From Candidatus Woesebacteria bacterium (GTDB lineage Bacteria > Patescibacteriota > Microgenomatia > UBA12405), in contig DAONDY010000002.1 of assembly GCA_035402805.1 (NCBI GenBank), positions 149,963 to 213,962 on the forward strand: DNA of 64,000 nt, written 5' to 3'. A model generated the notes under the pieces. It made no database searches, was not told where the DNA came from, and was given only the letters and a program-made list of their open reading frames with translations. Positions 3,880 through 63,002 of the stretch are shown here, piece after piece (the first letter of the stretch is position 1; every line of letters begins with the position of its first letter). Made by a program: the position numbers and the translations under genes.

Positions 3880-3881
3880 TT

Positions 3882-11334: not shown

Positions 11335-12171
11335 TTTAAACTTTTTGATTCCAAAAATAATCAAGGTGACTAATAAGATAAATAAAAGAGGTGAAATAGG
11401 TAAAACATAGAAGGAAGTGTTATATGGTTGAGAATTCAGATCGGAATTTAAAATGACAGAGACTTTGTAGTGGCCCGGCCAAAGAGGGGGATTGATAGAA
11501 CAGGAACTTTCATTTAAACAACTAATATTGCGACTGTGGTGGTTTAAAACATTATCTGGACTTAGCTCAAATTCTTTAATAACTTTATCGTTTTTAGTGA
11601 TGGTAATTTTGCCATTAGTTTTGAAAAAGAAATCGGAATTATTTTTTATTTGGCCATTAAAAGTGATGGGGTTAAAAAAGATGTCTTTTATTTTTGGAGA
11701 AATGGAAAAATTTTGAATAGCTGATTCAACTTTGGGGTTTTCGATATTGGAAACTGTCAACAAAAGATGGGAACCAATTTTGCCGGTGGCGGCAGTAAAA
11801 TTATCATTTGATTGAATAGTATTTTGATTTTGAAAAATAAAAAAAGTGTAATAATTGTCGGCTAGACTAATATTAGAATTGGTTTTTATTTTTAAAACTA
11901 GTTGTTGTTTGGAGTTGGCAGCTAAAACAAAAGGTTGACCGAGTTTAATATCAGAGTTGGCAAGGGAAAATTCAATATTAGGATTACTGATGGCTTGATT
12001 ATAATTAACCGAGCCGTCGGTGCCACTAGGAATCCAAGGTAAAATTTCAGTGTTAAGAATAATTTCAGAATCGGAATTATTGGTGACGTCGTAGGCTTGG
12101 ACAAGATTAACGCCGGGTTTTAAAACGTATTCTGATTGAGCTGGTGATAAAGATAAATTAAATGTTGTCAT
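11311..12171 (-). CDS. Hypothetical surface protein with C-terminal TM anchor (286 aa); 3' end overlaps pgi by 24 nt (convergent)
   Basis: ORF track. C-terminal [20 protein letters not shown] hydrophobic anchor. Confidence 0.4.
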
Positions 12172-12182
12172 AAATCTTATTA

Positions 12183-12265
12183 AAAACTCTCGTTACAAAT
12201 TTTTTATAATCGGCGAATGTGCGTCGCACGTTCGATATTACAAAAAATTGCAACTTCGACTTTTT
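12183..12265 (+). repeat. Intergenic repeat family A, copy A1 (~85 bp; outer arms gttacaaattttttat / acaaaaaattgcaac, inner hairpin gaatgtgcg-tc-gcacgttcg)
   Basis: 80-90% identity by eye to copies at 37241-37330 and 58988-59075. Lies between two minus-strand genes. Confidence 0.7.
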
Positions 12266-12284
12266 AATTATTTTATAAATCATA

Positions 12285-13034
12285 TTAATATTTAGGGACC
12301 ATAATAAAATTTATAGAATTTTGATAAGTGCCAGCACTTTGATTTGGAGAAATATTAACTTTATAAGTAATATTGGCAAGGTGATCTTCAACTGGGGTAT
12401 TTTCAGACATAATTATTTTGGCAGTTTCGCCAGCCGAATTATCAGCAAATTGACGGAAATAAGTAGAATTAGTAAAAAAAGTGGAAGTACCGTCACCAGA
12501 AGCATTAAAACCAAAACCATAGGTATTACTACTGGTCCAAACATCGGATGTTGATTCCGAACAGGTACTAGAATCACATTTAGTATCGGAAATAGTAATG
12601 CCACCGCCAATAGTTTTTAGAGGGTGATTAGCAAAGGTAAGAATATCGTAACCATGAGCAGTAGGGGTGCTAACAGTTAATGTGTTGGTAACAGTAGAAC
12701 CAATATTAGGAATCAAATTGCCAAAATTTAGATCAAGATTACTAATTTGAAAAGATAAAGGAATAGCATTGTCGTAAATATATTGAAAACCAGCTTTGAC
12801 AATATAACCAGCGCCATCGTATTGACCAGGGGCATTTTGACCGACAGAGTCGGTTAAAGTATAAGTGCTAGAAGTTTTTTTACCACCAGTCATATTAAAA
12901 TTGCCAAATTCAATATGAAAATTATTGGAATCAAAGGTTTGACTAAGACAGATTTCAGATCTCAGATGACAGATTTCAGATAAGAATAAAAAGGCAATAA
13001 AAAAGATTTTAAGTTTCATCAGATTCTTGATCAA
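12285..13034 (-). CDS. Secreted hypothetical protein with signal peptide (249 aa)
   Basis: ORF track. N-terminal MIKNLMKLKIFFIAFLFLSEI signal-like region. Confidence 0.45.
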   Translation of the reverse strand: MIKNLMKLKIFFIAFLFLSEICHLRSEICLSQTFDSNNFHIEFGNFNMTGGKKTSSTYTLTDSVGQNAPGQYDGAGYIVKAGFQYIYDNAIPLSFQISNLDLNFGNLIPNIGSTVTNTLTVSTPTAHGYDILTFANHPLKTIGGGITISDTKCDSSTCSESTSDVWTSSNTYGFGFNASGDGTSTFFTNSTYFRQFADNSAGETAKIIMSENTPVEDHLANITYKVNISPNQSAGTYQNSINFIMVPKY

Positions 13035-13719
13035 TTTGGGTAATTAATTGTTCAGAAGAATTTAGAAGGGATTTGGCTGATGATTTAATTTTATTAATTT
13101 TTTCTTTTTGGGTTGCCGATAAAGGGGTAGATACAATTTCGGAACTGGTGTCGATAATTTGACAGAGACCAGTTTTAAGTTTAAGTGAATGCCAAAGCAG
13201 AACATCAGTTTCATCGGCGGCAATAATTTTATCATCTTTAATTTTGGCTAAGAATTGGCGACCAATAAACCAAGCTAAGGGGGTGATTAATAAAAGAGAA
13301 GAAAGAGAAATGACAGAAACGAAAGAATTGAGTGATTGTGATAGGATTAGAACTAGAAAAAGAGAATAGGAAAGAGTAGTGGTGGCCGGGTTTTGAAAAG
13401 CAATAAAAAATAAAAGGAAGTAAATAAGAAAGAAAAAGGGTGAATTAAGACTGCCAGTGGCAAAAACAATGATATTAATTAAAAAGGCGGTTAAATGGAT
13501 AGAAAAAGTCTTTTTGGTAAAATATAAAATTAAAATGGCAATAGAAATGATAGCGATTAATTGGGGAGTAAAATAAGTCAAACTAGAGATAGAAAAAAGG
13601 AAAGATAAAAGAGAAACTATAAAGAATAAAATTATACTAATAATCTGAGGCATTAATATAGTATTGACCATTTGAGGTTGACTATCAAGTTTTTGGTTAA
13701 AAATGATAATATTTATCAA
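13009..13719 (-). CDS. Polytopic membrane protein (about 5 TM) with soluble C-terminal domain, function unknown
   Basis: ORF track. Repeated hydrophobic segments. Confidence 0.4.
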   Translation of the reverse strand: MINIIIFNQKLDSQPQMVNTILMPQIISIILFFIVSLLSFLFSISSLTYFTPQLIAIISIAILILYFTKKTFSIHLTAFLINIIVFATGSLNSPFFFLIYFLLFFIAFQNPATTTLSYSLFLVLILSQSLNSFVSVISLSSLLLITPLAWFIGRQFLAKIKDDKIIAADETDVLLWHSLKLKTGLCQIIDTSSEIVSTPLSATQKEKINKIKSSAKSLLNSSEQLITQIDQESDET

Positions 13720-14330
13720 TGAGATTGTTGGAAAAAATACAAAAACTAAAAATAGTTGACGGATTATTAGTGATAGGTTTTTTGCTGGTAATTTTAGGTA
13801 TTGGAATGAATTTTAAAGATCAGTTTATGACGAAAGAAGAAGTAAAAATAGAGACAAAAAATATTAGTCCAACAGGTAAAAGTGATATACAAGTTGATAT
13901 TGAAGTAGTTATTGATATATCAGGAGAAGTGATGAAAGCTGGTGTTTATAAACTAAAAAATGGATCAAGAATTGATGATGTATTAATAATGGCCGGGGGA
14001 CTAAGCTTAAAGGCAGATAGGAATTGGGTGGATAAAAATTTAAATCGAGCGGAAAAAGTTTACGACGGACAAAAGATTTATATACCTAAAGTTGGGGAAA
14101 ATGTTGTTATTAATAGCACCCCGCTGGTGCGGGATGCTATTGTAGTCAGACTTAATTCGGCGAGTTTGGAGGAGTTGGATAAGTTGGATGGAGTGGGTCC
14201 GGCGATTGCTCAAAGAATTATTGATTATCGAACTGAAAATGGGGGATTTAAAAGTGTGGAAGAAATTAAATTAGTGCCAGGGATAGGAGATAAGATGTTT
14301 GAAAAGATAAAAAATGAAATTCAATTATAA
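13719..14330 (+). CDS. comEA: ComEA-type DNA receptor: N-terminal TM, SLBB-like domain, C-terminal tandem helix-hairpin-helix
   Basis: C-terminal LDKLDGVGPAIAQRIIDYRTENGGFKSVEEIKLVPGIGDKMFEKIKN (HhH). N-terminal membrane helix. Confidence 0.8.
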   Translation: MRLLEKIQKLKIVDGLLVIGFLLVILGIGMNFKDQFMTKEEVKIETKNISPTGKSDIQVDIEVVIDISGEVMKAGVYKLKNGSRIDDVLIMAGGLSLKADRNWVDKNLNRAEKVYDGQKIYIPKVGENVVINSTPLVRDAIVVRLNSASLEELDKLDGVGPAIAQRIIDYRTENGGFKSVEEIKLVPGIGDKMFEKIKNEIQL

Positions 14331-15228
14331 ATATTTAATTTGGTTGGGAATATTTTTAGTAGTTATTTTTATATACAAGTTTATAAATAAGGATAGTTTT
14401 ATTGAGGTTATTTTTCAAAATTTGCCGCCGAGGGAAGCGAGCTTAATGGCGGGGATGGTCTTTGGAGATAAAAATAATTTTGACAAAAATACTATCTTAA
14501 ATTTTCAATTTAGTGGGGTAATTCATATTATGGTGGTTTCGGGAACGAATATTGTTTTAGTGTTTAGAGGTTTAGTAGAAAGAATTGCAAGCTGGATTGG
14601 TAGGAAAAGAGCAATTATATTGGGATTTGGAGTGACTTTGGTTTATATAAATTGGGTAGGTTGGGAAATACCGGCGGTCAGAGCTTTTTTACTGATGAGT
14701 ATTTTTTATTGGGCACAATTGCTTGGTCGCAAATTTAACCTATTTAGAGCCATAATGTTGATTATTTTAATAATGGTTTTGGCCGATTATCGGGTATTTT
14801 TGAGTGGCAGTTTTTATTTAAGTTTTGTGGCATTTGGGGCAGTAGTAATTAATTTAAACAAGTCGCGAAAATGGTGGAGTGATTTATGGAATTCATTCTG
14901 GGTAAATTTATGGCTTTTACCAATTTTGGCTTTGTTTTTTGGAAAAATAAGCATAGTGGCACCGATTACTAATGCTTTAATTTTATTTTTAGTCGAAATA
15001 ATTACTATTTTAGGGGTGATAGGAAGTTTTTTTGGTTTATTGGTGCCTATTTTGGGTAAAATCGTATTATGGATAAGTTATCCGTTATTGAAATATATAC
15101 TATTAATAGTAGATTGGTTGGCGAGTTTTAAATGGTCGAGTATAGAGATTAAATTTAATTGGTTGTTTCTAATTGGTTGGTATTCATTATTAATAGCTTG
15201 GTGGTTGAAGAAAAAAAATGAAACATAG
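14314..15228 (+). CDS. comEC: ComEC/Rec2 competence-domain membrane channel protein (304 aa), lacking the N-terminal OB domain and with the beta-lactamase-like domain encoded separately
   Basis: Competence-domain motif SLMAGMVFGDK...SGVIHIMVVSGTNIVLV and multiple TM helices. Confidence 0.75.
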   Translation: MKFNYKYLIWLGIFLVVIFIYKFINKDSFIEVIFQNLPPREASLMAGMVFGDKNNFDKNTILNFQFSGVIHIMVVSGTNIVLVFRGLVERIASWIGRKRAIILGFGVTLVYINWVGWEIPAVRAFLLMSIFYWAQLLGRKFNLFRAIMLIILIMVLADYRVFLSGSFYLSFVAFGAVVINLNKSRKWWSDLWNSFWVNLWLLPILALFFGKISIVAPITNALILFLVEIITILGVIGSFFGLLVPILGKIVLWISYPLLKYILLIVDWLASFKWSSIEIKFNWLFLIGWYSLLIAWWLKKKNET

Positions 15229-15976
15229 AATTATTTTGTTTTTGTCATTAATAATGTTGGTGGTGTTGTTTTGGATAACTTTACCATCAAAAAAAGTGAA
15301 AGTAATTTTTTGTGATGTGGGCCAAGGGGATGCGACTTTGATAACTTATAAAAATTGGCAAATGTTAATTGATACTGGTCCAAATAATAAAAAAGTGTTG
15401 AATTGTTTAGAAAATAATTTACCATTTTGGGATAAAAAAATTGAGATGTTAATGATTACTCATGGAGATAATGATCATGATGGTGGTTTAACAGATATGT
15501 CGAAATATTATAAAGTTGAACAAGTTATTTACTCTAAAAATGTGAATCAATTTGATTTAATTAGAACTGATTGGATGACATTTGAGGTGGTCAATTCTGG
15601 GTTGAAAGATGATAATGAAAATTCAATAGCCGGTGTTTTAAGTTATGAAAAAACTAAAATTTTTTTTAGTGGAGACATAACGGCTGACACTGAAAAGAGA
15701 TTGGTATGGCAAAAAATATTAACCGATAAGGTTGATGTTTTAAAAGTCAGTCATCATGGTTCGAAAGATGGGACTAGTGAAGAATTATTAGAAGTATTAA
15801 AACCAAAATTGGCAATAATAAGTGTGGGAGTAAAAAATAAATTTGGGCATCCAACCAAAGAAGTATTAGATCGTCTAAAAGAAAAAGGAATAGAGATTAG
15901 AAGAACAGATGAGAATGGAGAAGTGCATGTAATAGATGTATTAGAAGAAATAGATAAAAAAGAAGTAATAGATTAA
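15218..15976 (+). CDS. Metallo-beta-lactamase-fold protein corresponding to the ComEC C-terminal domain (separate ORF, 11-nt overlap with comEC)
   Basis: VIFCDVGQGDATLI, HGDNDHDGG (HxHxDH zinc motif), SHHGS motifs. Confidence 0.75.
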   Translation: MKHRIILFLSLIMLVVLFWITLPSKKVKVIFCDVGQGDATLITYKNWQMLIDTGPNNKKVLNCLENNLPFWDKKIEMLMITHGDNDHDGGLTDMSKYYKVEQVIYSKNVNQFDLIRTDWMTFEVVNSGLKDDNENSIAGVLSYEKTKIFFSGDITADTEKRLVWQKILTDKVDVLKVSHHGSKDGTSEELLEVLKPKLAIISVGVKNKFGHPTKEVLDRLKEKGIEIRRTDENGEVHVIDVLEEIDKKEVID

Positions 15977-16020
15977 ATAGATTATTTAGATTAAATAGAT
16001 TATTTAGATTAAATAGATTT
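15971..16020. repeat. Short imperfect tandem repeat, 9-bp unit (a/t)(a/t)tagatta x5 (18-mer gattaaatagattattta x2.8) overlapping the stop codon of the MBL-domain gene
   Basis: Seen in sequence. Confidence 0.6.
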
Positions 16021-16060
16021 ACCACTTGATATGGATGTAATAGATGGGTTAGACTGAATC

Positions 16061-16363
16061 GTGGATAAGTGGTTTTATAAATTACACAGGATGAGTCTTA
16101 ACCAGCTTAAAGCGCTGGAGGTTTTGGCGTCTAGCACGGATGGAATAATTGAAGCTAATGAATCAGTAAAAGAAGTTGGTTTGGAAGGGAAGCATTTAGG
16201 AGGGATATTTTCATCTTTGTCTAGACAAAAAATAGGGAATGAAGGCCTAATTTTGGCTTGGGGAAGGGCAGAAAATGGTCGAGGTTTAAGATGGAAATTG
16301 AATACAAAATTAGTCGATCAAAAAGAGTTAAAAAAAGCAATAAAGGAGATTTTAGACCTATGA
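16061..16363 (+). CDS. Hypothetical 100-aa protein whose stop overlaps the start of the giant surface protein gene (ATGA)
   Basis: ORF track. ctATGAactgg junction at 16361-16364. Confidence 0.4.
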   Translation: MDKWFYKLHRMSLNQLKALEVLASSTDGIIEANESVKEVGLEGKHLGGIFSSLSRQKIGNEGLILAWGRAENGRGLRWKLNTKLVDQKELKKAIKEILDL

Positions 16364-19300
16364 ACTGGAAGAAAATCTTTTTATTAGCTTTGATCTTTTT
16401 TATTAGTAGTTTAGTTTCAGCCAGAGTCTTTTATGGCCGATTTAAAATAATTTTTGCAGCTCAAACAACAATAACATCAAGGTTAGATTTTGATGCAGGT
16501 ACTTTTGAAGGAACTGAAAGTCAAAGTAAGGAGGGAGATTTAAAATTAAAAGCCAGTGGAAATTGGAATCCGAGAGTATTTAAAACACCAAAAGTGACAC
16601 TAACTAATCAATCAGCTATTGCCAGTGATGGAACGGATGTTTATTTATTAGCAGGTCAAGATAGATATTTTACTAAATATATTTCCAGTGAAGATAGATG
16701 GGTAACTTTAGAGAATGCACCACATTTAGCTTATAACGGGGCAGATTTGGTCGTGTTAGGAGATTATGTTTATGCAATATATGGAAGTAATACTAAAAAT
16801 TTCAGTCGTTATTCAATAATGACTAATACATGGGAAGAGAGAGAAGATATGCCAGATTTAGTGGCAAATGGATCAACTATTGAAACTGATGGAACTTATA
16901 TTTATGCTTTAAGGGGGAATTCAACTTCTGATTTTTGGAAATATAATCCAACTACTGACAAGTGGTCTGATTTAAATACACCACCAGCAGCAATTGGCTC
17001 TGGAGCTAGTTTAGTCTATAAAGATGGTTACTTATATACACCGAGAGGAGCTTCTAACACAACTTTTTATCGATATAACATTAGTAATGGGATATGGTAC
17101 ACAATGCAAAATATCCCGGCGACTGTAGGAAGTAATCATAAATCTACAGTTTTAGGTGATTATATTTATGTAAATAGAGATACTAACACAAATAGTTTTT
17201 ATCGTTTTAATGTGGGGACTACAGCTTGGCAGACAATTGCCAATATTCCACAATTGACTCAATATGTAGGATCAGTGGCAGTGGGAGATACTGCGACTGG
17301 TTTTGTTTATGTGTTTAGAGGCAATGGTTATTATGACTTTTGGAAATATAATCCGAGAGATAATACTTTCTTGGGATTAACAGATTTACCTAATACCCCA
17401 AATACTGGCGCTGATTTACTTTATATGGATAATTACGTTTATTTTAGGAGGGGAAATAGCTCAAATTCTTTTTATAGATACAACACAGCAGTTGGTGGTA
17501 CTTGGGCAACAATGGCAAATGCTCCGGCAACTTTTGCTGATGATAATAGGGGAGTTAAAGCAGGAAATTATCTATATTATTTCAGAGGAAGTGGTGGAGC
17601 TAATACTTTTTATAGATATGATCCTAGTGTTGGAGTTGGTGGTACTTGGGCAACTATGTTGAGTACTCCGACAGCTTTGACGATTGGAGCTGGAGGAGCT
17701 TTGGCTTATCCAGGATCAGGGAATTATATTTATGCGACAAGAGGTGGAAATAATAGAACTTTTATGAGGTATACGATTGGAGTAGGAGAAACTTGGGATG
17801 ATGCAGTAGTAGCAGATTTACCTGATAATGCTGAACAGGGTTATGGATCAAGAATGACAAGTGATGGGACTAATATTTACTATATTTCAGGGAATGGAAT
17901 GGCTAATTTATATAAATATACAATAGCTGATAACATCTGGACAAGGTTGGGAACTTTACCTTTTTCACCTTATTACGGAACAGATATTAGTTATTATAAT
18001 AATAAAATTTATGTATTAGCAGGTAACTTAAAATCGGATTTTTGGGAATATTCTATTGATGATGAAAGTTGGAGATTATTACCACCAATACAAAGTTATG
18101 GGTTAACAGAGATCGGAGTTTGGAATGGTGGTTCGATTGTGGGTGATGGAAGTGGAACTTTTTATATTGAAGCGGGCAATAATAATACTAGATTTTTTAG
18201 TTATAGTGTAGGGAGTAGCAATTATCCAAGTAATGGAATATGGACAAGCGCTACAATTGATTTAAATTATGTAAAAAGTTGGTCGCCAATAGGGATAGAA
18301 TCGAGTACTTTGCCAGGGACATCTATAAATTGGGAGACAAGAACTAGTAATGATCGAATAAACTGGGAAATTTGGAAAGCAGGAGTAGGAACTAGTATAA
18401 CTTCAACTCCAAACAGATATATTCAATTGAGAATAACCTTAAATTCTGACGGGAGCCAAACTCCAACATTAAATTCGGTAGTAATAAATTATGTTGGTGA
18501 TTTAGAAAACCCAACTAATCCAAATAATATAATAGGCTTATCTCAACAGGTGTCAGGAATAGGATTGTCTAGTGGTGGTACTTATAATTATTTAGCACCT
18601 TATTTTAATTGGAGTGGAAGTACTGATGTAGATACTGGAGTGGCTGGTTATTATGTTTACTTTGGAATTGATTCAACCGCGGTTCCCGATATTAACGGGT
18701 CTTTTAGAACTAGTGCTGATTATTTAGTTAGTGATCCAATGGATCAAACAACTTATTATTTGAGATTAAAAACAGTGGATGAAGCCGGTAATAAAAGTGA
18801 AGCAATGACAGCTTTTATTTATACTTATAATGGAGTGTCTCCACCAACAATATTAAGTAAAAGTTTGACAACAGATTTTGAATTGGGGACAACTGATAGT
18901 GTAAATATTAGTGATAATCAGATTAAATTGGCATCGAAAGCTGGTTTTTGGCAACAAAATAGACTAGGACCATTGTCGGGAACTATTAGTTATGGATCGG
19001 GTTTTGCTTATTCAGCAACTAGGAACAAATTATATATCTTAAGAGGGACAAACAGTAATTCTTTTTATCAATATGACTTGACAACTAATATTGGATCAAC
19101 TTTGGCTAATGCACCAGGAACTGTATATTATGGAAGTGATTTAGTTGAAGGTCCAAGTGGTTATTTATATGCCTTGAGAGGTAATAATACTAATGGTTTT
19201 TGGAGATATGATTTGGCAGCTGGGACTTGGTCTGATGTATTGGCGGCAGATACTCCACAACCAGTTTATTATGGAGGATCTTTAGTTTTTGATGGAGATA

Positions 19301-22300
19301 GATATATTTATGCTTTAAAAGGGAATACAGATGATACTTTTATGAGATACGATACTATGACTGATAGTTGGGAAGTTTTAGATAATATTGATTTTGGAGC
19401 ACCGATACAACAACTTAATAATAATGTTTATGATGGAGCAGACTTGGCTTTTGATGGTAATCATGAAATTTATGCAATTCAAGGAGGAAGTAAAACTGGT
19501 TTCTCGGTTTATAATATTAGTAGTGAAAAGTGGAGTCAGTTAGGAAATTTACCAGTAATGGCTGGAGCTGGATCGCAAATAGAGTTTGATGCTGATAATA
19601 ATGCTATTTATTATTCACCGGGGTGGGGAAGAAATTTCTTCTATAAATATAGCATTGAAAGCCAAAGCTGGAGTGAACTAGCAGAGGTACCTTATGTGGT
19701 AGGGGCAGGATCAGCTTTAAAAAAAGTTGGTGATAATATATTTTTGGCAATAGGAGGAGGAAGTGCAAATATTTATAAATATTCCATAAGTAAAAATGCT
19801 TGGTCGGTACCGACAATGGGATTGTTTGGTGGTTTTTTTAGGGGTAGTGACAGTAGAAATTTTACTTATGGTGCAGATATAGTTAAAGGAGATGGGGATT
19901 ATTATTATTTGACTAGAGGTAATTACGATAATCTCTTTGTTAGATATAATCCTGAAACTGGAGTGGCAACAAAAATGGCTGATGCTCCAGGAGGTTTTTA
20001 TAGTGGTGGAGATTTAACTTATGATAGTGTGGCTAATAAAATTTATGCTATTACTAATCCTAATTATAGAAAATTATTTGTCTATGATATAGCGACTGAT
20101 GTTTGGAGTGAAGAAATTAATGACCCACCACCGGCTGACGCTGCTGATGGAGGAGCGATGTCTTTTGATGGATCTAAATATATTTATTGGATTAGAGGTA
20201 TTGGTCAAAGTTTTTATAGATTTGATACTCAAGGAGTGGGAACTAGTAAGTGGTCAAAACTTCCAAATGTGCCTTTGGCAATTGGGGCTGGTGGCGATTT
20301 AGTAGTTAAAGGTGATTATATCTATAGTTTAAGAGGAGCTGCTTCAACCAGCTTTTTAAGATTTGATATTGGAACAACAACTTGGTCTGATGTGGCAGTA
20401 GCTGATTTACCATCTGGGATGACAGTAACAACAGATGGATTTTTAGTTGATTTAGGTGGAAACAAATTAATGGCTTGTCGAGGAAATAATACTAATACTT
20501 GTTATGAATATTCTATTAGTGATAACAGTTGGCAATTAATAGATGGAACTTTTGGACCATATATTTATAGAGGAGCAGCGGGAGCTAGTAATGGGGAAAA
20601 TAGAGCTTTTATAATTCCAGGAAATGGAACAGTAAATACACCAAATAATGGAATATACAGTTATGTAAGTCAAGGAAGTGATTCTGCTTATGAAGAAGAT
20701 GGTAGTTATATTAGTCCAGTTTATGATCTAGATATGGTTTATCGTTTTGCTAATTTAAAAGTTGGTGTATCAATGCCAAATAATACCGATTTGAATGTTT
20801 ATACAAAAACTTCTAGTGATAATGTTGAATGGAGTGATTGGGCTTTGGTTAGTGATAAAAAGATTATTGGAAATGATTGGATTTATAAAATAAATTCAAT
20901 ACCTGGTCGATATTTAATGATCAAATTAAACTTGTCCTCTAGTGATGGAATAAAAACTGGTGTAGTTAATGATTACCAAATTAGTTATTACCAAGATTTA
21001 GATCCGCCAAATAATCCGACGGAATTAAGTGTTTATCAGAATATTAGTAAAGGAACAACTTTAACTTCGGGAGTTTGGAATAATAGTACAACTCCTTATT
21101 TTGAATGGAATACAGGTACAGATGGAGACAATGGTTCAGGAGTGGCGGGTTATTATACTTATTTTAATCTAGGATCAACTGCTGATCCGGCAGTTTTAGG
21201 AACTTATACAACAGCACCTAATTTTAGTGGAGTTGGCTTATCTAGCGGGCAAACATACTTTTTCCGAATGAAGACTAAAGATAGTGCCAATAATATAAGT
21301 AGTGAAGTTGGAACAACTTTTGTCTATAAATTAGATAATACGCCGCCAGTTAATCCAATAACTATTTCAGTTGATCCACCAGGGTATACAAACACTAATA
21401 ATTTTAATTTTACTTGGTCTTCAGGAAGTGATGTTGGTTCATCAGTATCGGCTTATTGTTATAAAGTAGGAATAGGTGGAACTGAGAGTTGTATTCAGGG
21501 AATAGGGATAACTGGTGTTAGTGGAGTGCAAGCTTATCAAACAGGAACTAATACTTTCTATTTGAGAGTAAAAGACACAGCTAATAACTATGCGACTGAT
21601 TATGCTACGGCAAGTTTTTATTACAGTTCAATAGCTCCTGGAGCACCAAAAAATTTAGCAGTAGGGCCAACTATTAATTCAGTTAATGAATTTGCCTTTT
21701 CTTGGCAAGCACCAGACTTGTTTTATGGTCAACAAGTTGGATTGAGATATTATTATTCAATTAATGAAGAGCCTTCATCTTCAAATGTCAATAAAATTGG
21801 TTTAGCTGAAACTTATTTATCGAGTGGTCCTTATGCCACCAGAAAAGACAGTAACACTTTTTATGTGGTAGCAAAAGATGAAGCAGGAAATATTGATTAT
21901 AATAATTTTACTTCGGTTCAATTTGAAGCCAAAACTTCAGCTCCTGGAATTCCTTTAAATACTGATATTTCTGATGTATCAGTTAAAGAAACTAATAATT
22001 GGAGGTTGGCTTTGGCTTGGGAAAGTCCGGAAGTAAGTGGTTCAGGAATTGCCAATTATAAAGTTTACAGGTCAGGGGTGACAGATGCTAATTGTAGTAC
22101 TGATATGGATGACTTTACTAATATCTCTTCAACTAGTAGTGAATCATTTGTGGATACAAATTTAAAACAAACAAAATATTATTATTGTGTAACAGCTTGT
22201 GATTCAACTAATGAATGTAGTGCACCATCTAGTACAGTATCTTTAACTCCCGATGGAAAATGGCGGGTAGCTCCAACTTTATTAGATGGTCCAAGTGCGG

Positions 22301-23499
22301 TGGTAAAAACTAAATCGGCGACTGTTACATGGACAACCAATAGAACAGCTAGTTCATTTGTAAAATACGGAAAAAGTTCTGGTGATTATGGTGATGAAGT
22401 GGGAACTTCTGATCAATTAACGGCTCATGAAATTGATTTATCAGGATTGGATCCGGGAACAACTTATTATTATAAAGTTTTATGGACCGACGAAGATGGA
22501 AATACTGGAGAATCAGCAGAACAAACTTTTTCAACTAATGCAGCGCCACTAGTATCGGCAGTAAAAGTAAGTGATGTAAGTTTATATTCGGCTTATGTCG
22601 ACTTTACTCTTAAAAATGCAGTTAAAGCGGTGGTTCAATATGGAAAAACGACAGCTTATGGAAATAATCAGGAAATTACAACTTCTAGAGCTGAGGGAAG
22701 TTATATGTTTAAGATAGAAGAGTTGGAAGAAGGAACTGTTTATCATTTAAAGATACAAGCTTTAGATGAAGAAGGAAATATTTTTACTAGCGATGATTAT
22801 ATTTTTGAAACTTTACCAGTACCAAAGCTTTCAGATGTTAAAACCCAACAAGTTAAAGGAATGGCGACGGCAACTTTAAGATTGTTGTGGAAATCAAATA
22901 CAGCAGTGAGTTCAATAGTTACTTATTATCCAGTTGGAAGAACAGAAATGGCCAAAGATAATATTAAATTAACTTTATCAAAAAATCATGAAGTTTTATT
23001 AAAAGATTTATATGACGATACAGAATATGTATTAGTTTTTAAAGGAAGAGATTCAATGGGAAATAGTGCGGAGGGTATAACTTTGAAATTTAAAACATCA
23101 GCTGATATGAGACCACCAGTAATTTCTGATTTAAGATTAGAATCAGTTGTTGATGGAATAGGGGCTGATGCTAAAGCTCAAGTAATTGTTTATTGGAACA
23201 CTGATGAACCAGCAAGTTCGCAAGTAGAATATGGCCAAGGAACTGGCAATGATTATCCGAATAAGAGTCAAAAAGATTCTAATTTAACATTGAATCATAG
23301 TTTGACAGTTCCAGAGTTGAAACCGTCAGAGGTTTACCATTTTAGAGTAGTAACTGAGGATAAAATTGGCAATGTAAGTATGTCTTATGATAATGTAGTA
23401 ATAACCTCGAAAGAAACTAAATCAGCTTTGGATTTGGTAATTGAAAACTTATCTAAAAGTTTTGGATTTGTCAGTAATTTATCAGGAGTGGCTAAATAA
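16362..23499 (+). CDS. Giant secreted surface protein (~2379 aa): signal peptide, several Kelch-like beta-propeller repeat arrays (recurring Y.Y..RG....F.RYN....W units), interspersed FN3-like domains, and C-terminal array of purple-acid-phosphatase-N/FN3-like domains
   Basis: ORF track frame 16258-23499. Preferred start ATG 16362 giving MNWKKIFLLALIFFISSLVSA signal peptide. Dozens of ~45-aa Kelch-like repeats. FN3-like segments (ATVTWTTNRTASSFVKYGK...TTYYYKV). Confidence 0.8.
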
Positions 23500-24302
23500 T
23501 GATTAATAAAGAAATAATTCTAAAAATAGACGATGTAAAAATGGATTTTAATGTTGGGGGTCAAACGGTGCAGGTATTAAAAGGAATTAGTATGGATATC
23601 AAACAAGGTGATTTTGCTGTGATATTTGGACCATCAGGATGTGGTAAATCAACCTTATTACATTGTATTTTGGGAATGGAAAAACCAACTTCAGGAAAAG
23701 TTGCAATTGAAGGGATAGAAATAGGAAATATGACAGAAGATGAAATGGTTAAGTTTAGAAAAACTAGAATTGGATTTGTTTTTCAGCAATCAATATGGAT
23801 TAAATCTTTAAATGTATTAGAAAATGTAAGTTTTCCTAATTTATTAAAAGGAATGACTAAAGAGGATGCTCAAAAACTGGCTCTGGAAACCCTTAAAGAG
23901 GTTAAATTAGATAATTGGGCTAGTTATAGTCCAAGTCAATTATCTGGAGGTCAACAGCAAAGAGTTAGTCTAGCGAGAGCTTTAACCTTGGATCCAGCCA
24001 TAATTGTGGCTGATGAACCAACTGGAAATTTGGATACGGTGGCTGGTGATGAATTAATAGGCTTATTGGTAAGCTTAAATAAAGATAAAGGTAAAACTAT
24101 TGTAATGGTTACTCATGATTTGGAATATTTAAAATTTGCAAACAAATTGTTTCATATAATTGATGGTGAATTAGTGGAACAATTTGATAATGCTGAGGCA
24201 ATAAAAATGTCAGGTTCATTAAGAACTAAAAAAGGTAAAAGAACGAAAGAAACTGTTTGTAATGATAATTATTTAGATTCTAGAAATAAAAAATGCAAAT
24301 AA
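23499..24302 (+). CDS. ABC transporter ATP-binding protein, FtsE/LolD/MacB family
   Basis: Walker A GPSGCGKST, signature LSGGQQQRVSLARAL, Walker B IVADEPTGNLD. TAATG overlap with giant gene. Confidence 0.88.
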   Translation: MINKEIILKIDDVKMDFNVGGQTVQVLKGISMDIKQGDFAVIFGPSGCGKSTLLHCILGMEKPTSGKVAIEGIEIGNMTEDEMVKFRKTRIGFVFQQSIWIKSLNVLENVSFPNLLKGMTKEDAQKLALETLKEVKLDNWASYSPSQLSGGQQQRVSLARALTLDPAIIVADEPTGNLDTVAGDELIGLLVSLNKDKGKTIVMVTHDLEYLKFANKLFHIIDGELVEQFDNAEAIKMSGSLRTKKGKRTKETVCNDNYLDSRNKKCK

Positions 24303-26386
24303 TTAATAAAATTAAATCATTCAGTTTAAAAACTTTTTTAGCCAAGATGAGGGCAGCGATTTTATTTATCTGGTCAAATATAGTTTTTTTAGTTGTGCTA
24401 TTGGTTTATGTAATTAGAGGATTATTAAAATTCTTAACAAGAAGGAAATGGATAGGAAAATTATTTTTGTTGATAAAAACCGAATTTTTAATAAATTTAT
24501 TAACTAAATTAATGTATAAAATTGATGTTAATAAAGATGGAGGAGTGACTAAAAGTTATCTAATAGAATTGGCTTTTAGAAACATGAAATCTAAAAGAAA
24601 TAGAGCAATAGTGACAGTTGGAGGAGTGGCGTTGGGAGTAGGGGCAATTGTGTTTTTAGTGTCCATTGGTTATGGATTAGAAAGTATGGTAATTGGCAGA
24701 GTGGCAAAATTAGATGAATTAAAAATGGCTGATATCAGCTTAGGTAAATCTTTGACAGTTAAATTAAATGATGAAACATTGGAAAAAATTAAAGCTTTGA
24801 AAGATGTTACAGAAGTGATCCCAGTAGTTTCGATGGTTTCTAAAATTAAATTTAATAACTCAGTCTTTGATGTAATGTCTTTTGGAGTTGATGAAAGATA
24901 TATAAAAGCAGTAAATCCAAATTTTATAAGCGGAGAAAAATTTGCCGATAAGGATAAAAATTTTGTTTACAATAATGAAAATAATCAAAATATTTTAGGA
25001 GTAGAACAAGAAGTAGAAATGGTTGATGATAGTATGAAAACAAATTCAGGAATTTTTGATTTTAATGTGAAAGATGACAAAAAAGTAATGGTTTATAGTG
25101 ATTGTAATATGATTAAAAGCGAAGCTTTGGGTTATGTAATCAGAAGTGAGGGTGGGTATATAGGTGAAGAAGTTTGGGGTGAATATTATTTAAATGAAGA
25201 AAATAATGTGGTTGGGAGAAAAGAAAAATCAGAAGAATTTTATTCAAAATGGATTAGGGCAAAAGTGCCTTTATGGATGATAGGTGAAGAAGGATTAGCG
25301 GTGCCAAAGTTGACAAAAAATGGAGAACAGGAATGGGTGATTGGTTGTTTTAAAAATGAAGAAATAATAACTGAGGAAGGAAATTACGAAAAATCTAATT
25401 TAGATGAATATCTTGAAGGTGATGTTTTAGGAATAGCAACAGAATCAGCGGAATTAGTAACAACAGAAGAGGCAACTCCTTCAGCTAATTTATTTGAAAC
25501 AGTGACAGCAACTGATTCGGCTGGAATTGAATGGGTGGAACTAAAAAAAGTAGAAGAAGATCCAAATGCTTTAAAAGAAGTTGCTTTTAATGGGAGCCCA
25601 GTAGCAGAGGCTTTTGTTAGTACGGGAATGTTAAAACTTTTAGGGATGACGGCTGATAAAGCTATTGGAACTAATTTTAAAATTTCTTATATTATTCCCG
25701 ATGGTAATATTAGTGGAGTTAGTGGGAGGTTACAATCAACCGAGATTGAATATAAGGTCAAAGGAGTAGTAGATGATGCAACTAGTAATTACTATTATTT
25801 TCAAATAGCTGATGCTAAAAGATTAGGAATTAGTATTTATTCTCAATTAAAAGTAGTAGCTAAAGATAAGATAGCTTTGGCTGATGTTAGAAAAAATATT
25901 GAAGAATTGGGTTTAAAAACTGATAGTACAGCGGATACGGTGGTAAGAATAGAAAGTTTATTTGGAACTTTAAGAATAATTTTAGGATTTTTGGGTACAA
26001 TTGCTTTAGCAGTGGCATCTTTGGGGATGTTTAATACAATGACGGTTTCACTTTTAGAAAGAACTAGAGAGGTTGGTGTTATGAAGACTATGGGGATGCT
26101 TTCCAATGAGGTAAGAGAACTATTTTTGGCTGAGTCAATGATTATGGGAGTAGGAGGTGGAGTATTAGGAATTTTATTTGGATTTTTTTTAGGAAAAATA
26201 TTGTCAATAATTTTAAGTTCGATTTCTCTTTTAAAGGGTCAAGGAATAATAAGTATTACGACTATTCCTTGGTTTTTCACAGTATTTATTTTAGCAGTGT
26301 CTTTTTTGGTGGGAATAATTACTGGTTGGTATCCATCAAAGAGAGCTAGACAGATATCAGCTTTAAATGCTTTAAGATACGAATAA
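24293..26386 (+). CDS. MacB/FtsX-type ABC permease (697 aa) with extra N-terminal TM helix, large extracytoplasmic domain and C-terminal FtsX 3-TM bundle
   Basis: LAFRNMKSKRNRAIVT...GVALGVGAIVFLVSIG (TM1), ~400-aa middle domain, C-terminal FtsX-like helices. 10-nt overlap with ATPase gene. Confidence 0.8.
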   Translation: MQIINKIKSFSLKTFLAKMRAAILFIWSNIVFLVVLLVYVIRGLLKFLTRRKWIGKLFLLIKTEFLINLLTKLMYKIDVNKDGGVTKSYLIELAFRNMKSKRNRAIVTVGGVALGVGAIVFLVSIGYGLESMVIGRVAKLDELKMADISLGKSLTVKLNDETLEKIKALKDVTEVIPVVSMVSKIKFNNSVFDVMSFGVDERYIKAVNPNFISGEKFADKDKNFVYNNENNQNILGVEQEVEMVDDSMKTNSGIFDFNVKDDKKVMVYSDCNMIKSEALGYVIRSEGGYIGEEVWGEYYLNEENNVVGRKEKSEEFYSKWIRAKVPLWMIGEEGLAVPKLTKNGEQEWVIGCFKNEEIITEEGNYEKSNLDEYLEGDVLGIATESAELVTTEEATPSANLFETVTATDSAGIEWVELKKVEEDPNALKEVAFNGSPVAEAFVSTGMLKLLGMTADKAIGTNFKISYIIPDGNISGVSGRLQSTEIEYKVKGVVDDATSNYYYFQIADAKRLGISIYSQLKVVAKDKIALADVRKNIEELGLKTDSTADTVVRIESLFGTLRIILGFLGTIALAVASLGMFNTMTVSLLERTREVGVMKTMGMLSNEVRELFLAESMIMGVGGGVLGILFGFFLGKILSIILSSISLLKGQGIISITTIPWFFTVFILAVSFLVGIITGWYPSKRARQISALNALRYE

Positions 26387-26388
26387 GT

Positions 26389-27387
26389 TTATTCAATTTC
26401 TGGCTTAGAGATCTCGTCGTAAACAACTTTAGAGACCTGTTTTATAAAATTGGCGGCATTGTCAAAGTCAGTACTACGACTCATAACACAGATCAAATAA
26501 GGTTTATTAGGTAGATAAACAATACCACAATCGTGAAGTTGTTTTTCTTTACTTGGTAAATATTGACGTTCGCCAAATTTATGAGAAACAGTAATGTTTT
26601 CTGGAACACCAGCGACTAAACCTTTGTAATATTGAGTTTTTGATAAAATGTTTAAAGCTTTTTCTGAGTTGTCTTGATCTAAAAAAGAAGCATTGAATAA
26701 AATTCTAAAAAATGAAGCATAATCTTTAACAGTAATAATATTACCATTAGGATCTTTCTGGGCTCTGGAAATATCAACGTCTAAATCTTTATAGACATTA
26801 AAAATTTTAGTATTATCGATATTGTCTAAAAGTAATTCATAGGCAGCGTTATCAGAGTAAATAATCATACGTTCAAGTAGATCACCAATAGTATATTCTT
26901 TATCTTTTTCGATGGTTTGAGTTGGAGTAATATTTTGTTGACTGTAATCAAAGTCTCTATTGTTGATAATTTTTTTATCTAAAAAATCATGATCCTTTTC
27001 GGTTTCTTTAAGGTAAGCCATTAAAACTGGAACCTTAATAAGACTAGCAGGCGAGAAGTATTCTTTTTCGTTAATACCAAGCCAAGGACCATTATTTAAA
27101 TCGCGATAATAAATCGAAGCAAAACTGATATTACCACTAGAAATTTGTTGATTAATAATAAATTGAATTTCTTTTTTTAATGAAGCTAAATTTTTATCTT
27201 GGCTAATAGTACTGGTTTCACATTCAAGTAGAGGGTTAATATATTTATAATTAAAATTATTACGAACTTCTTTAATAATATTTTGATTTGTTGTAGTAAA
27301 GATATAAGGTGAAAAAATAAGTCCACCAACAAAACTGACTAAAATTAAAGAAGAAGTAACGGCTATTTTTTTAATTGATAGATCCAT
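26389..27387 (-). CDS. Membrane-anchored class A beta-lactamase-like serine hydrolase
   Basis: SxxK motif SLIKVPVLMAYL, SDN motif IYSDNAAYELL, KTG-like HKFGE. N-terminal TM. Confidence 0.6.
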   Translation of the reverse strand: MDLSIKKIAVTSSLILVSFVGGLIFSPYIFTTTNQNIIKEVRNNFNYKYINPLLECETSTISQDKNLASLKKEIQFIINQQISSGNISFASIYYRDLNNGPWLGINEKEYFSPASLIKVPVLMAYLKETEKDHDFLDKKIINNRDFDYSQQNITPTQTIEKDKEYTIGDLLERMIIYSDNAAYELLLDNIDNTKIFNVYKDLDVDISRAQKDPNGNIITVKDYASFFRILFNASFLDQDNSEKALNILSKTQYYKGLVAGVPENITVSHKFGERQYLPSKEKQLHDCGIVYLPNKPYLICVMSRSTDFDNAANFIKQVSKVVYDEISKPEIE

Positions 27388-42648: not shown

Positions 42649-43059
42649 TTATTTTAATTCAACTTGAGCACCAGCAGCTTCTAATTTAGCTTTAGCATCA
42701 TTAGCAGCATCTTTTTTCATGGTACCTAAATCAGCTGGACAGGCATCGACCATATCTTTAGCTTCTTTTAAACCAAGTTCTGGTTTAAATTCTCGAACAG
42801 CTTTGATGACGGCAATTTTATTGGCGCCAGCAGAAGTGATGACGACATCAAATTCAGTCTTTTCTTCAGCAGCAGGAGCGGCAGCAGCACCACCAGCAAC
42901 GGCAGCACCAGCAGCAGCTACAGGAGCAGCAGCGACGGCCTTGACATCAAATTTTTCTTCAAGAGCCTTAACTAATTCGGAAAGCTCAAGAACTGAGAGT
43001 TCGGCTACAGAATCGAGTAATTTTTCGATTTTAGCACTTACTTTTTTATCTTCTGACAT
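42649..43059 (-). CDS. rplL: 50S ribosomal protein L7/L12
   Basis: N-terminal dimerisation helix, Ala-rich hinge, C-terminal KEAKDMVD...[12 protein letters not shown]. Confidence 0.92.
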
Positions 43060-43634: not shown

Positions 43635-43836
43635 ATTTTTTTATAAAAAAACCTCGCCGAAGTGCGAGGGTAATGTAAAACAAGATAAATTGTTTTGCCT
43701 CGGCGGGATTTATTTTTGTACCTGCTGTCTTCGGTTGATGGGTTTATTGTACTAAGAAATAGTTTAAATGTAAAGAATTAAAAAAAGAAGGTCTGGGGAA
43801 GCAATGGTTTAAATTGTTTCCCGAGACCTCGGATGT
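43635..43836 (-). promoter_or_regulatory. rplJ leader region containing GC hairpin cctcgc-acttcg-gcgagg followed by U-run 9 nt before the start codon (possible L10-responsive attenuator, or terminator of upstream gene)
   Basis: Hairpin at 43651-43670 plus second GC segment gcctcggcggg at ~43697. Interpretation by analogy with rplJ leader autoregulation. Confidence 0.35.
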
Positions 43837-62856: not shown

Positions 62857-63002
62857 TAGTTTTGTTTTTTCCAGTTTCGTCCTTTTGGACTCATCAGTAT
62901 CGACAATATCGATAGACTGGAGTGAGCTGAAAAAATAGAGAAGTAATTTAAAAGCAAAAGTGCTTCAAACTATTCATATTCTTTCAGCTCATCAGCCGTG
63001 AT

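Follow-up and report, generated by a model that had tools for sequence, protein, structure and literature searches.

The seven plus-strand genes at 13719-26386 of the window (the whole 64,000-nucleotide stretch that was analysed, from a Candidatus Woesebacteria bacterium) are best explained as two independent units, an explanation to which, taken as a whole, we assign a probability of roughly 0.55. ComEA and a two-piece ComEC would form an ordinary DNA-uptake set whose upstream position in this lineage is incidental. The second unit would be an operon extending from its own promoter (16026-16055) to 26386, autoregulated by a winged-helix protein, whose giant surface protein is held or actuated by a cognate ABC complex.

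Organization of the locus

ORF calls gave seven plus-strand genes with overlapping or adjoining ends, as the first-pass annotation had described, including the ATGA overlap at 16360-16363 and the TAATG junction at 23497-23501. Its domain calls (ComEA HhH/SLBB, Competence, Lactamase_B, Kelch, FN3, ABC_tran, MacB_PCD and FtsX) were also recovered with Pfam and NCBIfam. The features of the region are the following:

13719..14330, plus strand: ComEA (ORF call; TM anchor, SLBB, HhH DNA-binding)
14314..15228, plus strand: ComEC channel half (ORF call; 17-nt overlap with ComEA)
15218..15976, plus strand: ComEC nuclease (MBL) half (ORF call; 11-nt overlap with the channel half)
15923..16021, plus strand: 9-bp repeat array including the distal box (11 units; putative operator or iteron array)
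16026..16055, plus strand: sigma-70-type promoter (consensus scan and conservation)
16061..16363, plus strand: 100-aa winged-helix protein, GTG start (ORF call; putative autoregulator)
16360..23499, plus strand: giant surface protein, 2379 aa (ORF call and Pfam)
23386..23496, plus strand: conserved C-terminal tail of the giant protein (tail conservation across loci; proposed ABC docking or recognition element)
23499..24302, plus strand: ABC ATPase (ORF call and ABC_tran)
24293..26386, plus strand: type VII (MacB/FtsX-fold) permease, 697 aa (ORF call, Pfam FtsX/MacB_PCD, AF2; 10-nt overlap with the ATPase)

A convergent gene begins 2 nt past the permease stop. Only one interruption breaks the series of overlaps: the MBL gene and the 100-aa ORF are separated by a gap of 84 nt (15977-16060). 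Co-transcription, which had been suggested for all seven genes, fits the tightly coupled small ORF, giant gene, ABC ATPase and permease, but a conserved promoter lies in the gap that follows the ComEC MBL gene. No terminator was predicted in these 84 nt, so read-through from comEC into the downstream operon is possible in this genome.

The DNA-uptake genes and their linkage to the operon

ComEA matched Pfam HHH_3 (4.8e-22) plus SLBB, and TIGR01259 at 5e-30, yet with 104 bits against a cut-off of 152 bits. The channel half of ComEC consists of the Competence domain alone (Pfam, 1.1e-39; no OB-fold/DUF4131 was detected) and matches positions 117-410 of TIGR00361. The nuclease half, which has an N-terminal TM helix and an MBL domain with the motif THGDNDH, matches positions 424-663 of the same family at 2.5e-34, as well as Lactamase_B (1.3e-12). 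The two halves are separate ORFs in 9/9 related loci. The similarity of the MBL protein to its relatives stops near aa 236 of 252, and the final ~17 codons of its gene run into the 9-bp repeat array.

The seven genes could also be read as a single co-transcribed system in which DNA scavenging by ComEA/ComEC is physically coupled to host attachment, a reading that we consider highly improbable. The shared strand, the compact spacing and the gap devoid of a predicted terminator agree with it, and a clade of close relatives (L002-L004, L029, L030, L033-L035, L040, L041, L052, L054) carries ComEA/ComEC immediately upstream, in some cases with no small ORF between ComEC and the giant gene. However, of the 28 loci for which 3 kb or more of upstream sequence was available, just nine have ComEA/ComEC upstream in the same orientation, all of them from close relatives (Shapirobacteria-like CPR). 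An opposite-strand beta-lactamase-like gene separates ComEC from the small ORF in L001, L005, L007 and L008; in L011 and L012 the ComE block is inverted and ~8 kb distant, where it accompanies the upstream genes 11311-13719(-), and in loci of more distant genomes it is absent within 10 kb of the operon. Thus, the functional link between DNA uptake and the giant protein proposed in the first-pass annotation was not borne out: the comEC linkage is confined to close relatives and a dedicated promoter intervenes, whereas synteny of the small ORF, giant gene, ABC ATPase and FtsX permease is conserved as a tightly coupled unit down to ~40% protein identity.

The promoter, the repeat array and the winged-helix protein

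A consensus scan of the window identified a promoter with −35 TTGATA, an 18-nt spacer and −10 TAGACT. In all 25 genome loci aligned, TTGACA-N17/18-TATACT precedes the small ORF at a constant distance, whatever gene lies upstream; this, together with the 9/28 loci with ComEC upstream, is the reason for considering the two units independent. The −10 box ends 5 nt upstream of the GTG start of the 100-aa ORF, and this spacing suggests that the mRNA is leaderless or near-leaderless.

The array has 11 units: a distal box, GTGCATGTA, and, after it, ten 9-bp units with the consensus A-W-A-G-A-W-N-W-W. Two further repeat-like units, ATGGATGTA and ATAGATGGG, are found inside the promoter spacer. TRF reported a period of 9 with 8 copies, including a perfect repeat of 18 nt x 2.8. 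In the window and in 25 loci the units keep a common register, which continues into the −35 and −10 boxes; a lag of 9 gave the strongest autocorrelation in 25/26 upstream regions, and the distal box is located at −(4 or 5 + 9n) relative to the −35 box in 21/22 loci. Array length ranges from 3 to 13 units across loci, and within ~470 kb the array is nearly unique to the promoter site of the operon. It co-occurs with the small ORF: the median maximum lag-9 autocorrelation was 0.62 in the 29 loci with the ORF and 0.37 in the 23 without it, and values of at least 0.55 were obtained for 17/29 and 0/23, respectively, a contrast inflated by the frameshifted genes included in the latter group. The pairing of array and small ORF holds even before unrelated giant genes (L013, L019).

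Structure prediction, which had been suggested for the 100-aa protein, produced a confident winged-helix model (pLDDT 89.5). Its invariant residues are GK.LGG.FSSLSRQ, in the recognition helix, and GRGLRWKLN, in the basic wing. The nearest folds are DNA-binding winged-helix domains, including those of the repeat-array binders Orc/Cdc6, RepA and TubR, and no sequence similarity to any PDB chain or Pfam family was found. The protein of the window had no Pfam MarR match, and the best match of a distant relative was MarR_2 (E 0.027, below the cut-off). Since the small ORF is missing from 23 of the 52 complete triad loci, it is dispensable for the triad of surface protein, ATPase and permease.

The surface protein and its ABC pair

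The giant protein comprises a Sec-type signal (~aa 1-34), two Kelch beta-propeller blocks, each trailed by a stretch unassigned by Pfam, and FN3/Ig repeats (Pfam on 300-aa slices). Its homologues (36-80% identity) come after the small ORF in 24/26 genome loci. The only hydrophobic segment is N-terminal and is followed by a conserved AxA-type site and a conserved mature N-terminus; neither a C-terminal TM nor an LPXTG was found by hydropathy and sequence inspection. The most conserved part of the protein is the C-terminal ~400 aa, ending in the tail YDNVVITSKETKSALDLVIENLSKSFGFVSNLSGVAK, with the near-invariant pattern …V.ITPK.T..AL.LV…L…FGF…. The sequence of this tail is amphipathic, and the tail is present once per locus, where it invariably closes the gene that lies before the ABC ATPase.

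In the translated ABC ATPase, the motifs are intact (Walker A GPSGCGKST, signature LSGGQQQR, Walker B IIVADEPT, H-loop VTHD). It matched ABC_tran at 5.5e-34, and its best NCBIfam matches, all below their cut-offs, were LolD, YbbA, the MacB NBD and FtsE. The permease matched Pfam FtsX (3.1e-18) and MacB_PCD (1.8e-10). Hydropathy and the AF2 model supported both the extra N-terminal hydrophobic helix (~aa 15-50, before TM1) and the extracytoplasmic domain of ~400 aa that had been noted earlier; the latter measures ~417 aa (aa 138-554), includes a conserved beta-rich insertion, carries conserved residues throughout, and precedes TM2-4. The best Foldseek matches of this moderately confident model (pLDDT 75.3, pTM 0.51; residues 226-238 and 377-423 below 50) were MacB, LolCDE, Spr0694-0695 and YtrEF (E 1e-17 to 1e-14).

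The conserved core is therefore a triad, formed by a surface protein with an FN3 stalk and the tail, the ABC ATPase, and an FtsX/MacB permease of ~700 aa with an outer domain of ~420 aa. The overlap between the stop of the small ORF and the start of the giant gene measures 4 nt in 12 genome loci and 8 nt in four. In a metagenome scan seeded with the tail, the ABC ATPase followed it in 66/71 loci (53/57 + 13/14) and the FtsX permease in 61/62 (50/50 + 11/12). These and the other locus counts are not independent, because several loci represent one contig, identical or nearly so, that recurs in more than one collection. The linkage of tail and ABC genes extends to shorter proteins (1100-1600 aa, DUF2341 type) that have neither the Kelch part nor the small ORF; in one tail-bearing locus (L100), neither ABC nor FtsX was found within 10 kb. 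The first-pass annotation regarded the arrangement as not a described system, and for the operon of small ORF, giant gene, ABC ATPase and FtsX permease no description was found in the literature searched.

Alternative explanations for the array and the ABC pair

The array might instead act as a contingency (copy-number-variable) or UP-like promoter element, adjusting expression through slippage, with the winged-helix protein acting on another protein or DNA. The variation of 3-13 units between loci and the signs of perfect recent duplication (the 18 nt x 2.8 repeat in the window, stretches of identical units in L005 and L009) are compatible with this, and winged-helix domains can mediate protein contacts too. 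We judge it unlikely given the strict co-occurrence of array and small ORF (17/29 against 0/23 at the 0.55 threshold), which persists in L013 and L019, and given the invariant recognition helix and basic wing; the two ideas are not exclusive.

The ABC pair, in turn, could be a generic pump of the MacB/BceAB type, serving efflux or peptide resistance and connected to the surface protein by nothing more than a common operon. Its homologues are annotated at source as 'antimicrobial peptide transport system permease', and small-molecule export is common among MacB-family pumps (review PMC5985334). However, the pair follows a tail-bearing gene in 61/62 to 66/71 loci across ~40% identity and is missing in L019, where the C-terminus of the giant protein is different. 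On one contig, two diverged triads lie in tandem (permeases 32% and ATPases 46% identical), and each giant gene retains its own pair. Together with the absence of MacA/HlyD adaptor or BceRS-type sensor genes from the gene tables of two annotated loci, these observations make a generic pump very unlikely. A LolCDE-like extractor, which would transiently pull the tail, or an uncleaved N-terminal anchor, from the membrane and free the giant protein to the wall, S-layer or medium, is doubtful but deserves consideration. The permease fold fits LolCDE as well as MacB, the top NCBIfam match of the ATPase was LolD (4.4e-63, below the cut-off), and the amphipathic tail could sit in the outer leaflet. 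The linkage of tail, ABC and FtsX supports extraction and anchoring alike; against extraction, the N-terminus of the giant protein has no lipobox or cysteine in its sequence, no hydrophobic stretch of the tail is long enough to form a TM, and no downstream acceptor was in evidence.

Comparison with known systems

FtsEX and its partners (EnvC, PcsB, CwlO, RipC) share with this operon the type VII ABC fold, a separate ATPase and a partner gene linked to the ABC genes; by analogy, the role proposed here would be holding and driving an exported protein, not solute transport. In contrast to FtsX (~300 aa), the permease has 697 aa, a MacB_PCD and the ~417-aa outer domain, and its FtsX NCBIfam matches were far below the cut-offs; the partner is a 2379-aa Kelch/FN3 protein rather than a coiled-coil hydrolase activator, and a division context is not evident. 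LolCDE, among the top structural matches and the best family match of the ATPase, likewise acts on a membrane-tethered protein terminus, but the putative substrate here lacks a lipobox, and the single permease gene implies a homodimer instead of a LolC/LolE pair. CPR cells are generally thought to have no outer membrane, and so would offer no Lol destination. MacAB-TolC shows the same MacB_PCD and FtsX architecture, MacB being the top Foldseek match, but here the NBD is encoded as a polypeptide of its own, the outer domain has roughly double the size, and neither a MacA/HlyD-family adaptor nor TolC appears in the two gene tables. Giant adhesins of type 1 secretion (LapA/LapBCE, RTX adhesins) also combine a repetitive surface protein, a conserved C-terminal element and an adjoining ABC gene; unlike them, the giant protein has an N-terminal Sec-type signal and would not need export driven by a C-terminal signal, and the ABC is of the type VII fold, not the T1SS exporter type, with no MFP or OMF partner seen.

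Regarding the array, TubR-tubC, the omega repressor heptads and the RepA iterons differ from it in that the period here is 9 bp, the putative binder has no sequence similarity (PDB, Pfam), and the setting is the regulation of a surface-protein operon on a chromosome instead of the partition or replication of a plasmid. Compared with MarR/ArsR-type repressors, the 100-aa protein is ~40 aa shorter than MarR proteins, and its candidate operator consists of direct repeats, not a palindrome.

Proposed function of the operon

Both mechanistic steps of the preferred explanation, autoregulation through the array and docking of the tail on the ABC complex, are inferred from co-occurrence and fold. The winged-helix protein would bind the 9-bp units from the distal box, GTGCATGTA, up to and including the −35 and −10 boxes and thereby autoregulate the operon, like proteins that coat short direct-repeat arrays. 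A 9-bp spacing is unusual among known winged-helix operators, which counts against this step. Sec export and cleavage at the AxA-type site would leave the giant protein with no membrane anchor of its own, given its single N-terminal hydrophobic segment and the lack of a C-terminal TM or LPXTG. Its near-invariant amphipathic tail may then dock on the outer domain of the dedicated type VII ABC complex. FtsEX holds and conformationally drives EnvC, PcsB or RipC; in a comparable manner, this complex would retain the giant protein at the cell surface and pass ATP-driven conformational changes to it, with the variable Kelch propellers, probably glycan-binding, at its distal end.

Organization of the locus

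The ORF scan recovered all seven plus-strand genes proposed in the first-pass annotation, with the same boundaries, and Pfam and NCBIfam bore out all of the domain calls.

Features of the locus (window positions)
13719-14330, +, ComEA (ORF scan)
14314-15228, +, ComEC channel half, Competence-domain ORF (ORF scan, Pfam)
15218-15976, +, ComEC nuclease half, MBL ORF (ORF scan, Pfam)
15923-16021, +, array of 9-bp units, including a perfect 18-nt repeat of 2.8 copies
16026-16055, +, predicted sigma-70-type promoter (consensus scan)
16061-16363, +, small ORF, 100 aa (ORF scan)
16360-23499, +, giant, 2379 aa, starting at the ATG at 16360 (ORF scan)
23499-24302, +, ABC ATPase (ORF scan)
24293-26386, +, permease, 697 aa (ORF scan)

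Both reported junctions occur in the sequence: ATGA at 16360-16363, where the small ORF meets the giant, and TAATG at 23497-23501, where the giant meets the ABC ATPase. The genes had been described as overlapping or adjacent along the whole chain; this is correct except for one 84-nt break, between 15976 and 16061. The locus consists of two units, the ComE set and an operon with its own promoter. The search for intrinsic terminators was uninformative (6 found vs 4.4 expected).

Elsewhere in the window, whose GC content is 29-39%, the plus-strand GC skew is positive in every 2-kb window (0.09-0.48, mostly above 0.2), even over minus-strand genes. A match to the type III hammerhead ribozyme at 62869-62922 (-), which scores 49.2 bits (gathering score 48.5) and has an intact CUGAUGA...GAAA core, lies within the 146-nt spacer of two minus-strand genes (61987-62856 and 63003-63854). 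There is also a tandem repeat at 48640-48892 (114 nt, 2.2 copies, 79% matches), and a CAG triplet run of about 22 units (42867-42933, 71% matches) located about 700 nt from an L10 leader match at 43637-43752 (-).

The operon is conserved independently of the ComE genes

Using the small ORF family, we collected 26 genome loci with 10-kb flanks. The closest one (L003) belongs to a Candidatus Shapirobacteria MAG and shows 80-89% protein identity; the remaining relatives are labelled as Shapirobacteria, Roizmanbacteria or Woesebacteria, or carry MAG labels that are generic or evidently wrong. These relatives place the window in a CPR bacterium of the Microgenomates group. In 24 of the 26 loci, the small ORF is followed by a homologue of the giant, the ABC ATPase comes next in all 18 loci that are long enough, and the permease is then present in all 15 that extend further. 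The end of the small ORF and the start of the giant share 4 nt in 12 loci and 8 nt in four; gaps of 4-25 nt are found in four others, and three loci carry an extra putative membrane protein of 220-240 aa between the two genes (L021 10300-11022, L022 10317-10985 and L024 10297-10980; the ORF at 1260-1928 of L062 is the L022 gene). This branch has the largest giants (about 2750-2900 aa), and at least some of its extra ORFs have an N-terminal hydrophobic stretch.

At the other end, a same-strand ComEC MBL gene within 3 kb upstream was found in only 9 of the 28 loci with enough sequence, all of them in the clade closest to the window. In four relatives (L001, L005, L007 and L008), an opposite-strand beta-lactamase-like gene separates ComEC from the small ORF; its window homologue sits downstream of the permease, in convergent orientation (26389-27387). 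In two others (L011 and L012), the ComE block is inverted and about 8 kb away, still beside homologues of the window genes at 11311-13034, and the other genome loci with upstream sequence have no ComE gene within 10 kb. Among the loci of the closest clade, L033, L040 and L052 have the giant directly after ComEC without the small ORF or the array, and the spacer of about 100-170 nt contains promoter-like hexamers. Since only the closest relatives have ComEC directly upstream and elsewhere insertions or inversions are observed, the ComE adjacency is a lineage-restricted synteny that has been repeatedly broken, and not a conserved functional link. Together with the promoter that separates the two units, this corrects the attractive but unsupported inference that DNA uptake is physically coupled to adhesion at this locus.

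Upstream of ComEA, the minus strand (11311-13719) encodes three proteins without a family: one of 286 aa, a secreted one of 249 aa whose C-terminus reads ...TYQNSINFIMVPKY, and a polytopic membrane protein of 236 aa. Homologues of the 286-aa and 249-aa proteins stay beside ComEA even in the inverted block (L011 and L012, around 2100-5100). Secreted proteins with a similar ...TxxxIYTATxxY ending are encoded behind an unrelated giant at 17831-19830 of L019.

ComEC itself is encoded as a channel half and a TM-anchored MBL half in the window (14314-15976) and in all nine related loci carrying both parts (L001-L004, L007-L009, L011 and L012). The relative frames of the two ORFs vary among these loci, which rules out a sequencing frameshift artefact and identifies the split as a lineage trait. 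The channel half contains a Competence domain (Pfam, 1.1e-39) and the nuclease half a Lactamase_B domain (1.3e-12) with the HxDxDH-type motif THGDNDH; both domains are shared with the known ComEC/Rec2 channels, and both halves match TIGR00361, with the match beginning at model position 117. In contrast to the known proteins, which are single polypeptides with an N-terminal OB-fold, here there are two ORFs, and neither gave an OB-fold or DUF4131 match in Pfam or NCBIfam. A word search of a paper on ComEC evolution (PMC6299819) for terms that would describe a divided gene gave no match.

A 9-bp array and a dedicated promoter precede the small ORF

When the 260 nt preceding the small ORF were aligned for the window and 25 other loci, an architecture emerged that is conserved regardless of the upstream gene. 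It comprises a distal box, GTGCATGTA; a series of 3 to 13 nine-bp units with the consensus A-W-A-G-A-W-N-W-W; and a sigma-70-type promoter, TTGACA-N17/18-TATACT, whose spacer includes two further unit-like 9-mers. In the window, the array begins inside the MBL gene, within its final ~17 codons. The units are in register: lag 9 gave the top autocorrelation in 25 of the 26 upstream regions, and the offset of the distal box from the -35 hexamer is -(4 or 5 + 9n) in 21 of the 22 loci that have this box. In most loci (16055-16063 in the window and its equivalents in L001-L018), only 5-11 nt separate the end of the -10 box from the start codon of the small ORF. Because this leaves no room for a Shine-Dalgarno sequence, the spacing suggests that the mRNA of the small ORF is leaderless or near-leaderless.

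Period-9 arrays this strong are nearly confined to the promoter site. Only four other peaks were detected in the ~470 kb scanned, and the idea that the array is a general promoter feature was rejected on this basis; two of the four were looked at, a coding repeat (L012) and a peak that overlaps the CAG run of the window (42867-42933). The in-register array is linked to the small, winged-helix gene. When the 52 loci with a complete upstream end were compared, the median of the maximum lag-9 autocorrelation was 0.62 with the small ORF (n=29) vs 0.37 without it (n=23), and values of at least 0.55 were found in 17/29 and 0/23 loci, respectively; these numbers are indicative only, since the loci without the small ORF include some frameshifted genes and in several cases the same contig is represented by more than one locus. 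The small ORF and the array also precede unrelated giants in L013 and L019.

The fold of the small ORF matches winged-helix proteins in the structural model. The small ORF itself had no family match in NCBIfam or in Pfam, even at E up to 1, and extending the Pfam search at this limit to nine distant relatives brought up no usable match; a MarR profile (MarR_2) was hit by one distant relative at E 0.027, under the cut-off. The profile of the small ORF retrieved only noise from the PDB (E above 1). The winged-helix protein may bind the array and thereby autoregulate the operon.

The giant ends in a conserved tail linked to an ABC ATPase and an FtsX permease

The giant has one N-terminal hydrophobic segment followed by a conserved AxA-type site and a conserved mature N-terminus, T(I/L)TSR.DF..G. 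Two Kelch blocks come next, each followed by a stretch unmatched in Pfam, and then FN3/Ig repeats. We read the unmatched stretches as probable beta-sandwiches; this duplicated layout derives from Pfam slices and sequence reading, given that a blastp self-comparison (E 1e-5) found no internal repeat pairs. A whole-protein sequence search of the PDB gave no match.

In an alignment of 18 homologues, conservation of the giant is highest over the C-terminal ~400 aa, and its final ~37 aa make up a near-invariant tail, …D(T/N)V.(I/V)TPK.T..AL.LV(I/V)..L...FGF…, which occurs once per locus and ends the gene before the ABC ATPase. A homologue search with the last 120 aa yielded only 6 fragments and hence no taxonomic spread. 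When the tail alignment was used to seed a metagenome scan, 304 relatives were obtained, from which 80 loci were kept. The ABC ATPase directly follows the tail in 53 of 57 loci matched by the tail regular expression and in 13 of 14 that it missed and that were checked by coordinates; the FtsX permease comes next in 50/50 and 11/12, respectively. The sole clear exception to this linkage is one locus, L100. These results establish a triad of tail-bearing protein, ABC ATPase and FtsX permease, which in the window lies downstream of the dedicated promoter.

Shorter proteins of 1100-1600 aa can also carry the tail and be accompanied by the ABC pair; that of L028, for example, has a DUF2341 N-terminal part and is without Kelch repeats, small ORF or array. 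In L019, the giant ends in a different C-terminus, and the ABC pair is missing. On one contig, two triads are arranged in tandem, head to tail (L022 155-9724, followed by L022 10001-20155 / L062), with permeases that are 32% identical and ATPases that are 46% identical. The presence of two diverged triads side by side suggests that a surface protein requires the particular ABC pair encoded with it. The small ORF and the array are seen for the second triad only; the start of the first copy falls outside the locus.

All three features of a type VII ABC system were found in the window: a four-helix FtsX domain, an outer domain with a MacB core and an intact ATPase. The ATPase (ABC_tran, 5.5e-34) retains the Walker A, signature, Walker B with the catalytic Glu, and H-loop motifs. 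The permease matches FtsX at aa 566-689 (66.4 bits, cut-off 25.5) and MacB_PCD (41.9 bits, cut-off 27). Hydropathy places TM segments at 103-137, 555-588, 610-649 and 650-682 and, with the AF2 model, agrees with the earlier description of an additional hydrophobic helix at the N-terminus and an outer domain of ~400 aa, here ~417 aa, besides the four FtsX helices. The outer domain holds a beta-rich insertion in which Gly, Trp and Tyr positions are conserved across 43 homologues. Foldseek searches with this model, of moderate confidence (pLDDT 75.3), retrieved MacB, LolCDE, Spr0694-0695 and YtrEF (E 1e-17 to 1e-14).

Discussion

We regard the operon as a candidate type VII ABC system for mechanotransmission, in which the class of partner and the regulatory module are both new. 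In the literature searched, which included reviews of type VII ABC systems, the triad, the tail, the small protein and the array are not described, and the module is not mentioned in the literature on Omnitrophota giant genes (bioRxiv 10.1101/2023.11.21.568195) or in a Saccharibacteria Tn-seq paper (PMC10633639). Very large FN3-containing CPR proteins have been referred to as surface-targeted in general statements (PMC13059738).

Once exported, the giant would lack any anchor in its own sequence. Neither a C-terminal TM segment nor LPXTG is present, and its last 37 aa show no hydrophobic span, LPXTG or family match that would indicate a sortase, exosortase or T9SS sorting signal; sortase and PEP-CTERM signals combine a motif, a TM helix and a basic tail, and T9SS uses a CTD of ~80 aa, neither of which the tail fits. 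Its tail may instead dock on the outer domain of the cognate type VII ABC complex, which would hold or actuate the giant in a manner similar to FtsEX. The permease differs from FtsX, whose outer domain is short (~100 aa), and it scores 28-32 bits against the FtsX NCBIfam models (cut-offs 225-255). A transient extraction or release like that carried out by LolCDE, instead of anchoring, fits the same data, and LolCDE is among the structural matches of the permease; however, LolCDE substrates are lipoproteins with a lipobox, whereas the N-terminus of the giant has neither a lipobox nor a Cys, and the permease reaches 66 bits against the lolCE model TIGR02212 (cut-off 362).

A generic efflux role for the ABC pair would be in line with its MacB fold and is unlikely because of the linkage of the tail to the ABC ATPase and the FtsX permease. 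MacAB-TolC has a linked MacA/HlyD adaptor and an outer-membrane duct, neither of which was seen at the window operon or at L027 and L028, the loci with gene tables. No gene of the window operon matches HlyD; the next gene is the convergent beta-lactamase-like one, and those after the permease in L027 and L028 are also unrelated (Rhodanese and GIY-YIG, respectively). CPR bacteria are generally considered to have no outer membrane. Type I secretion also differs: its substrates have no N-terminal signal, whereas the giant has one of the Sec type, and it uses its own type of ABC protein with an MFP and an OMF, whereas here the ABC pair has the MacB fold and no MFP or OMF gene was seen at the window operon, L027 or L028.

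Docking of the tail on the ABC complex could be part of a surface machine, so far unrecognised, in many Microgenomates, in which a Sec-exported giant or mid-sized protein on an FN3 stalk is plugged by its tail into the enlarged outer domain of its cognate type VII ABC complex and actuated by ATP, one branch being regulated by a new array-polymerising winged-helix protein. We consider this tentative, with a probability of roughly 30%. ATP hydrolysis in the cytoplasm would then drive the mechanical actuation, tensioning or release of an adhesin of ~2400 residues, and in that branch the winged-helix protein would polymerise on the copy-number-variable array built into the promoter, setting expression. 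If true, mechanotransmission would have a new use here, and the architecture of the operator would be new as well.

The winged-helix protein and its in-register array constitute one of the few defined promoter/operator candidates for the CPR radiation, and this putative operator is directly testable in vitro. The lifestyle of CPR bacteria is believed to be one of attachment to other cells, for which they would have to display and control very large surface proteins; the giant shows no recognisable anchor. The conserved pairing of a tail-bearing protein with its own MacB/FtsX-type ABC complex is a concrete, testable candidate for the anchoring or actuation of such proteins, and would extend the idea of mechanotransmission, as in FtsEX, LolCDE and MacB, to adhesin-like proteins.
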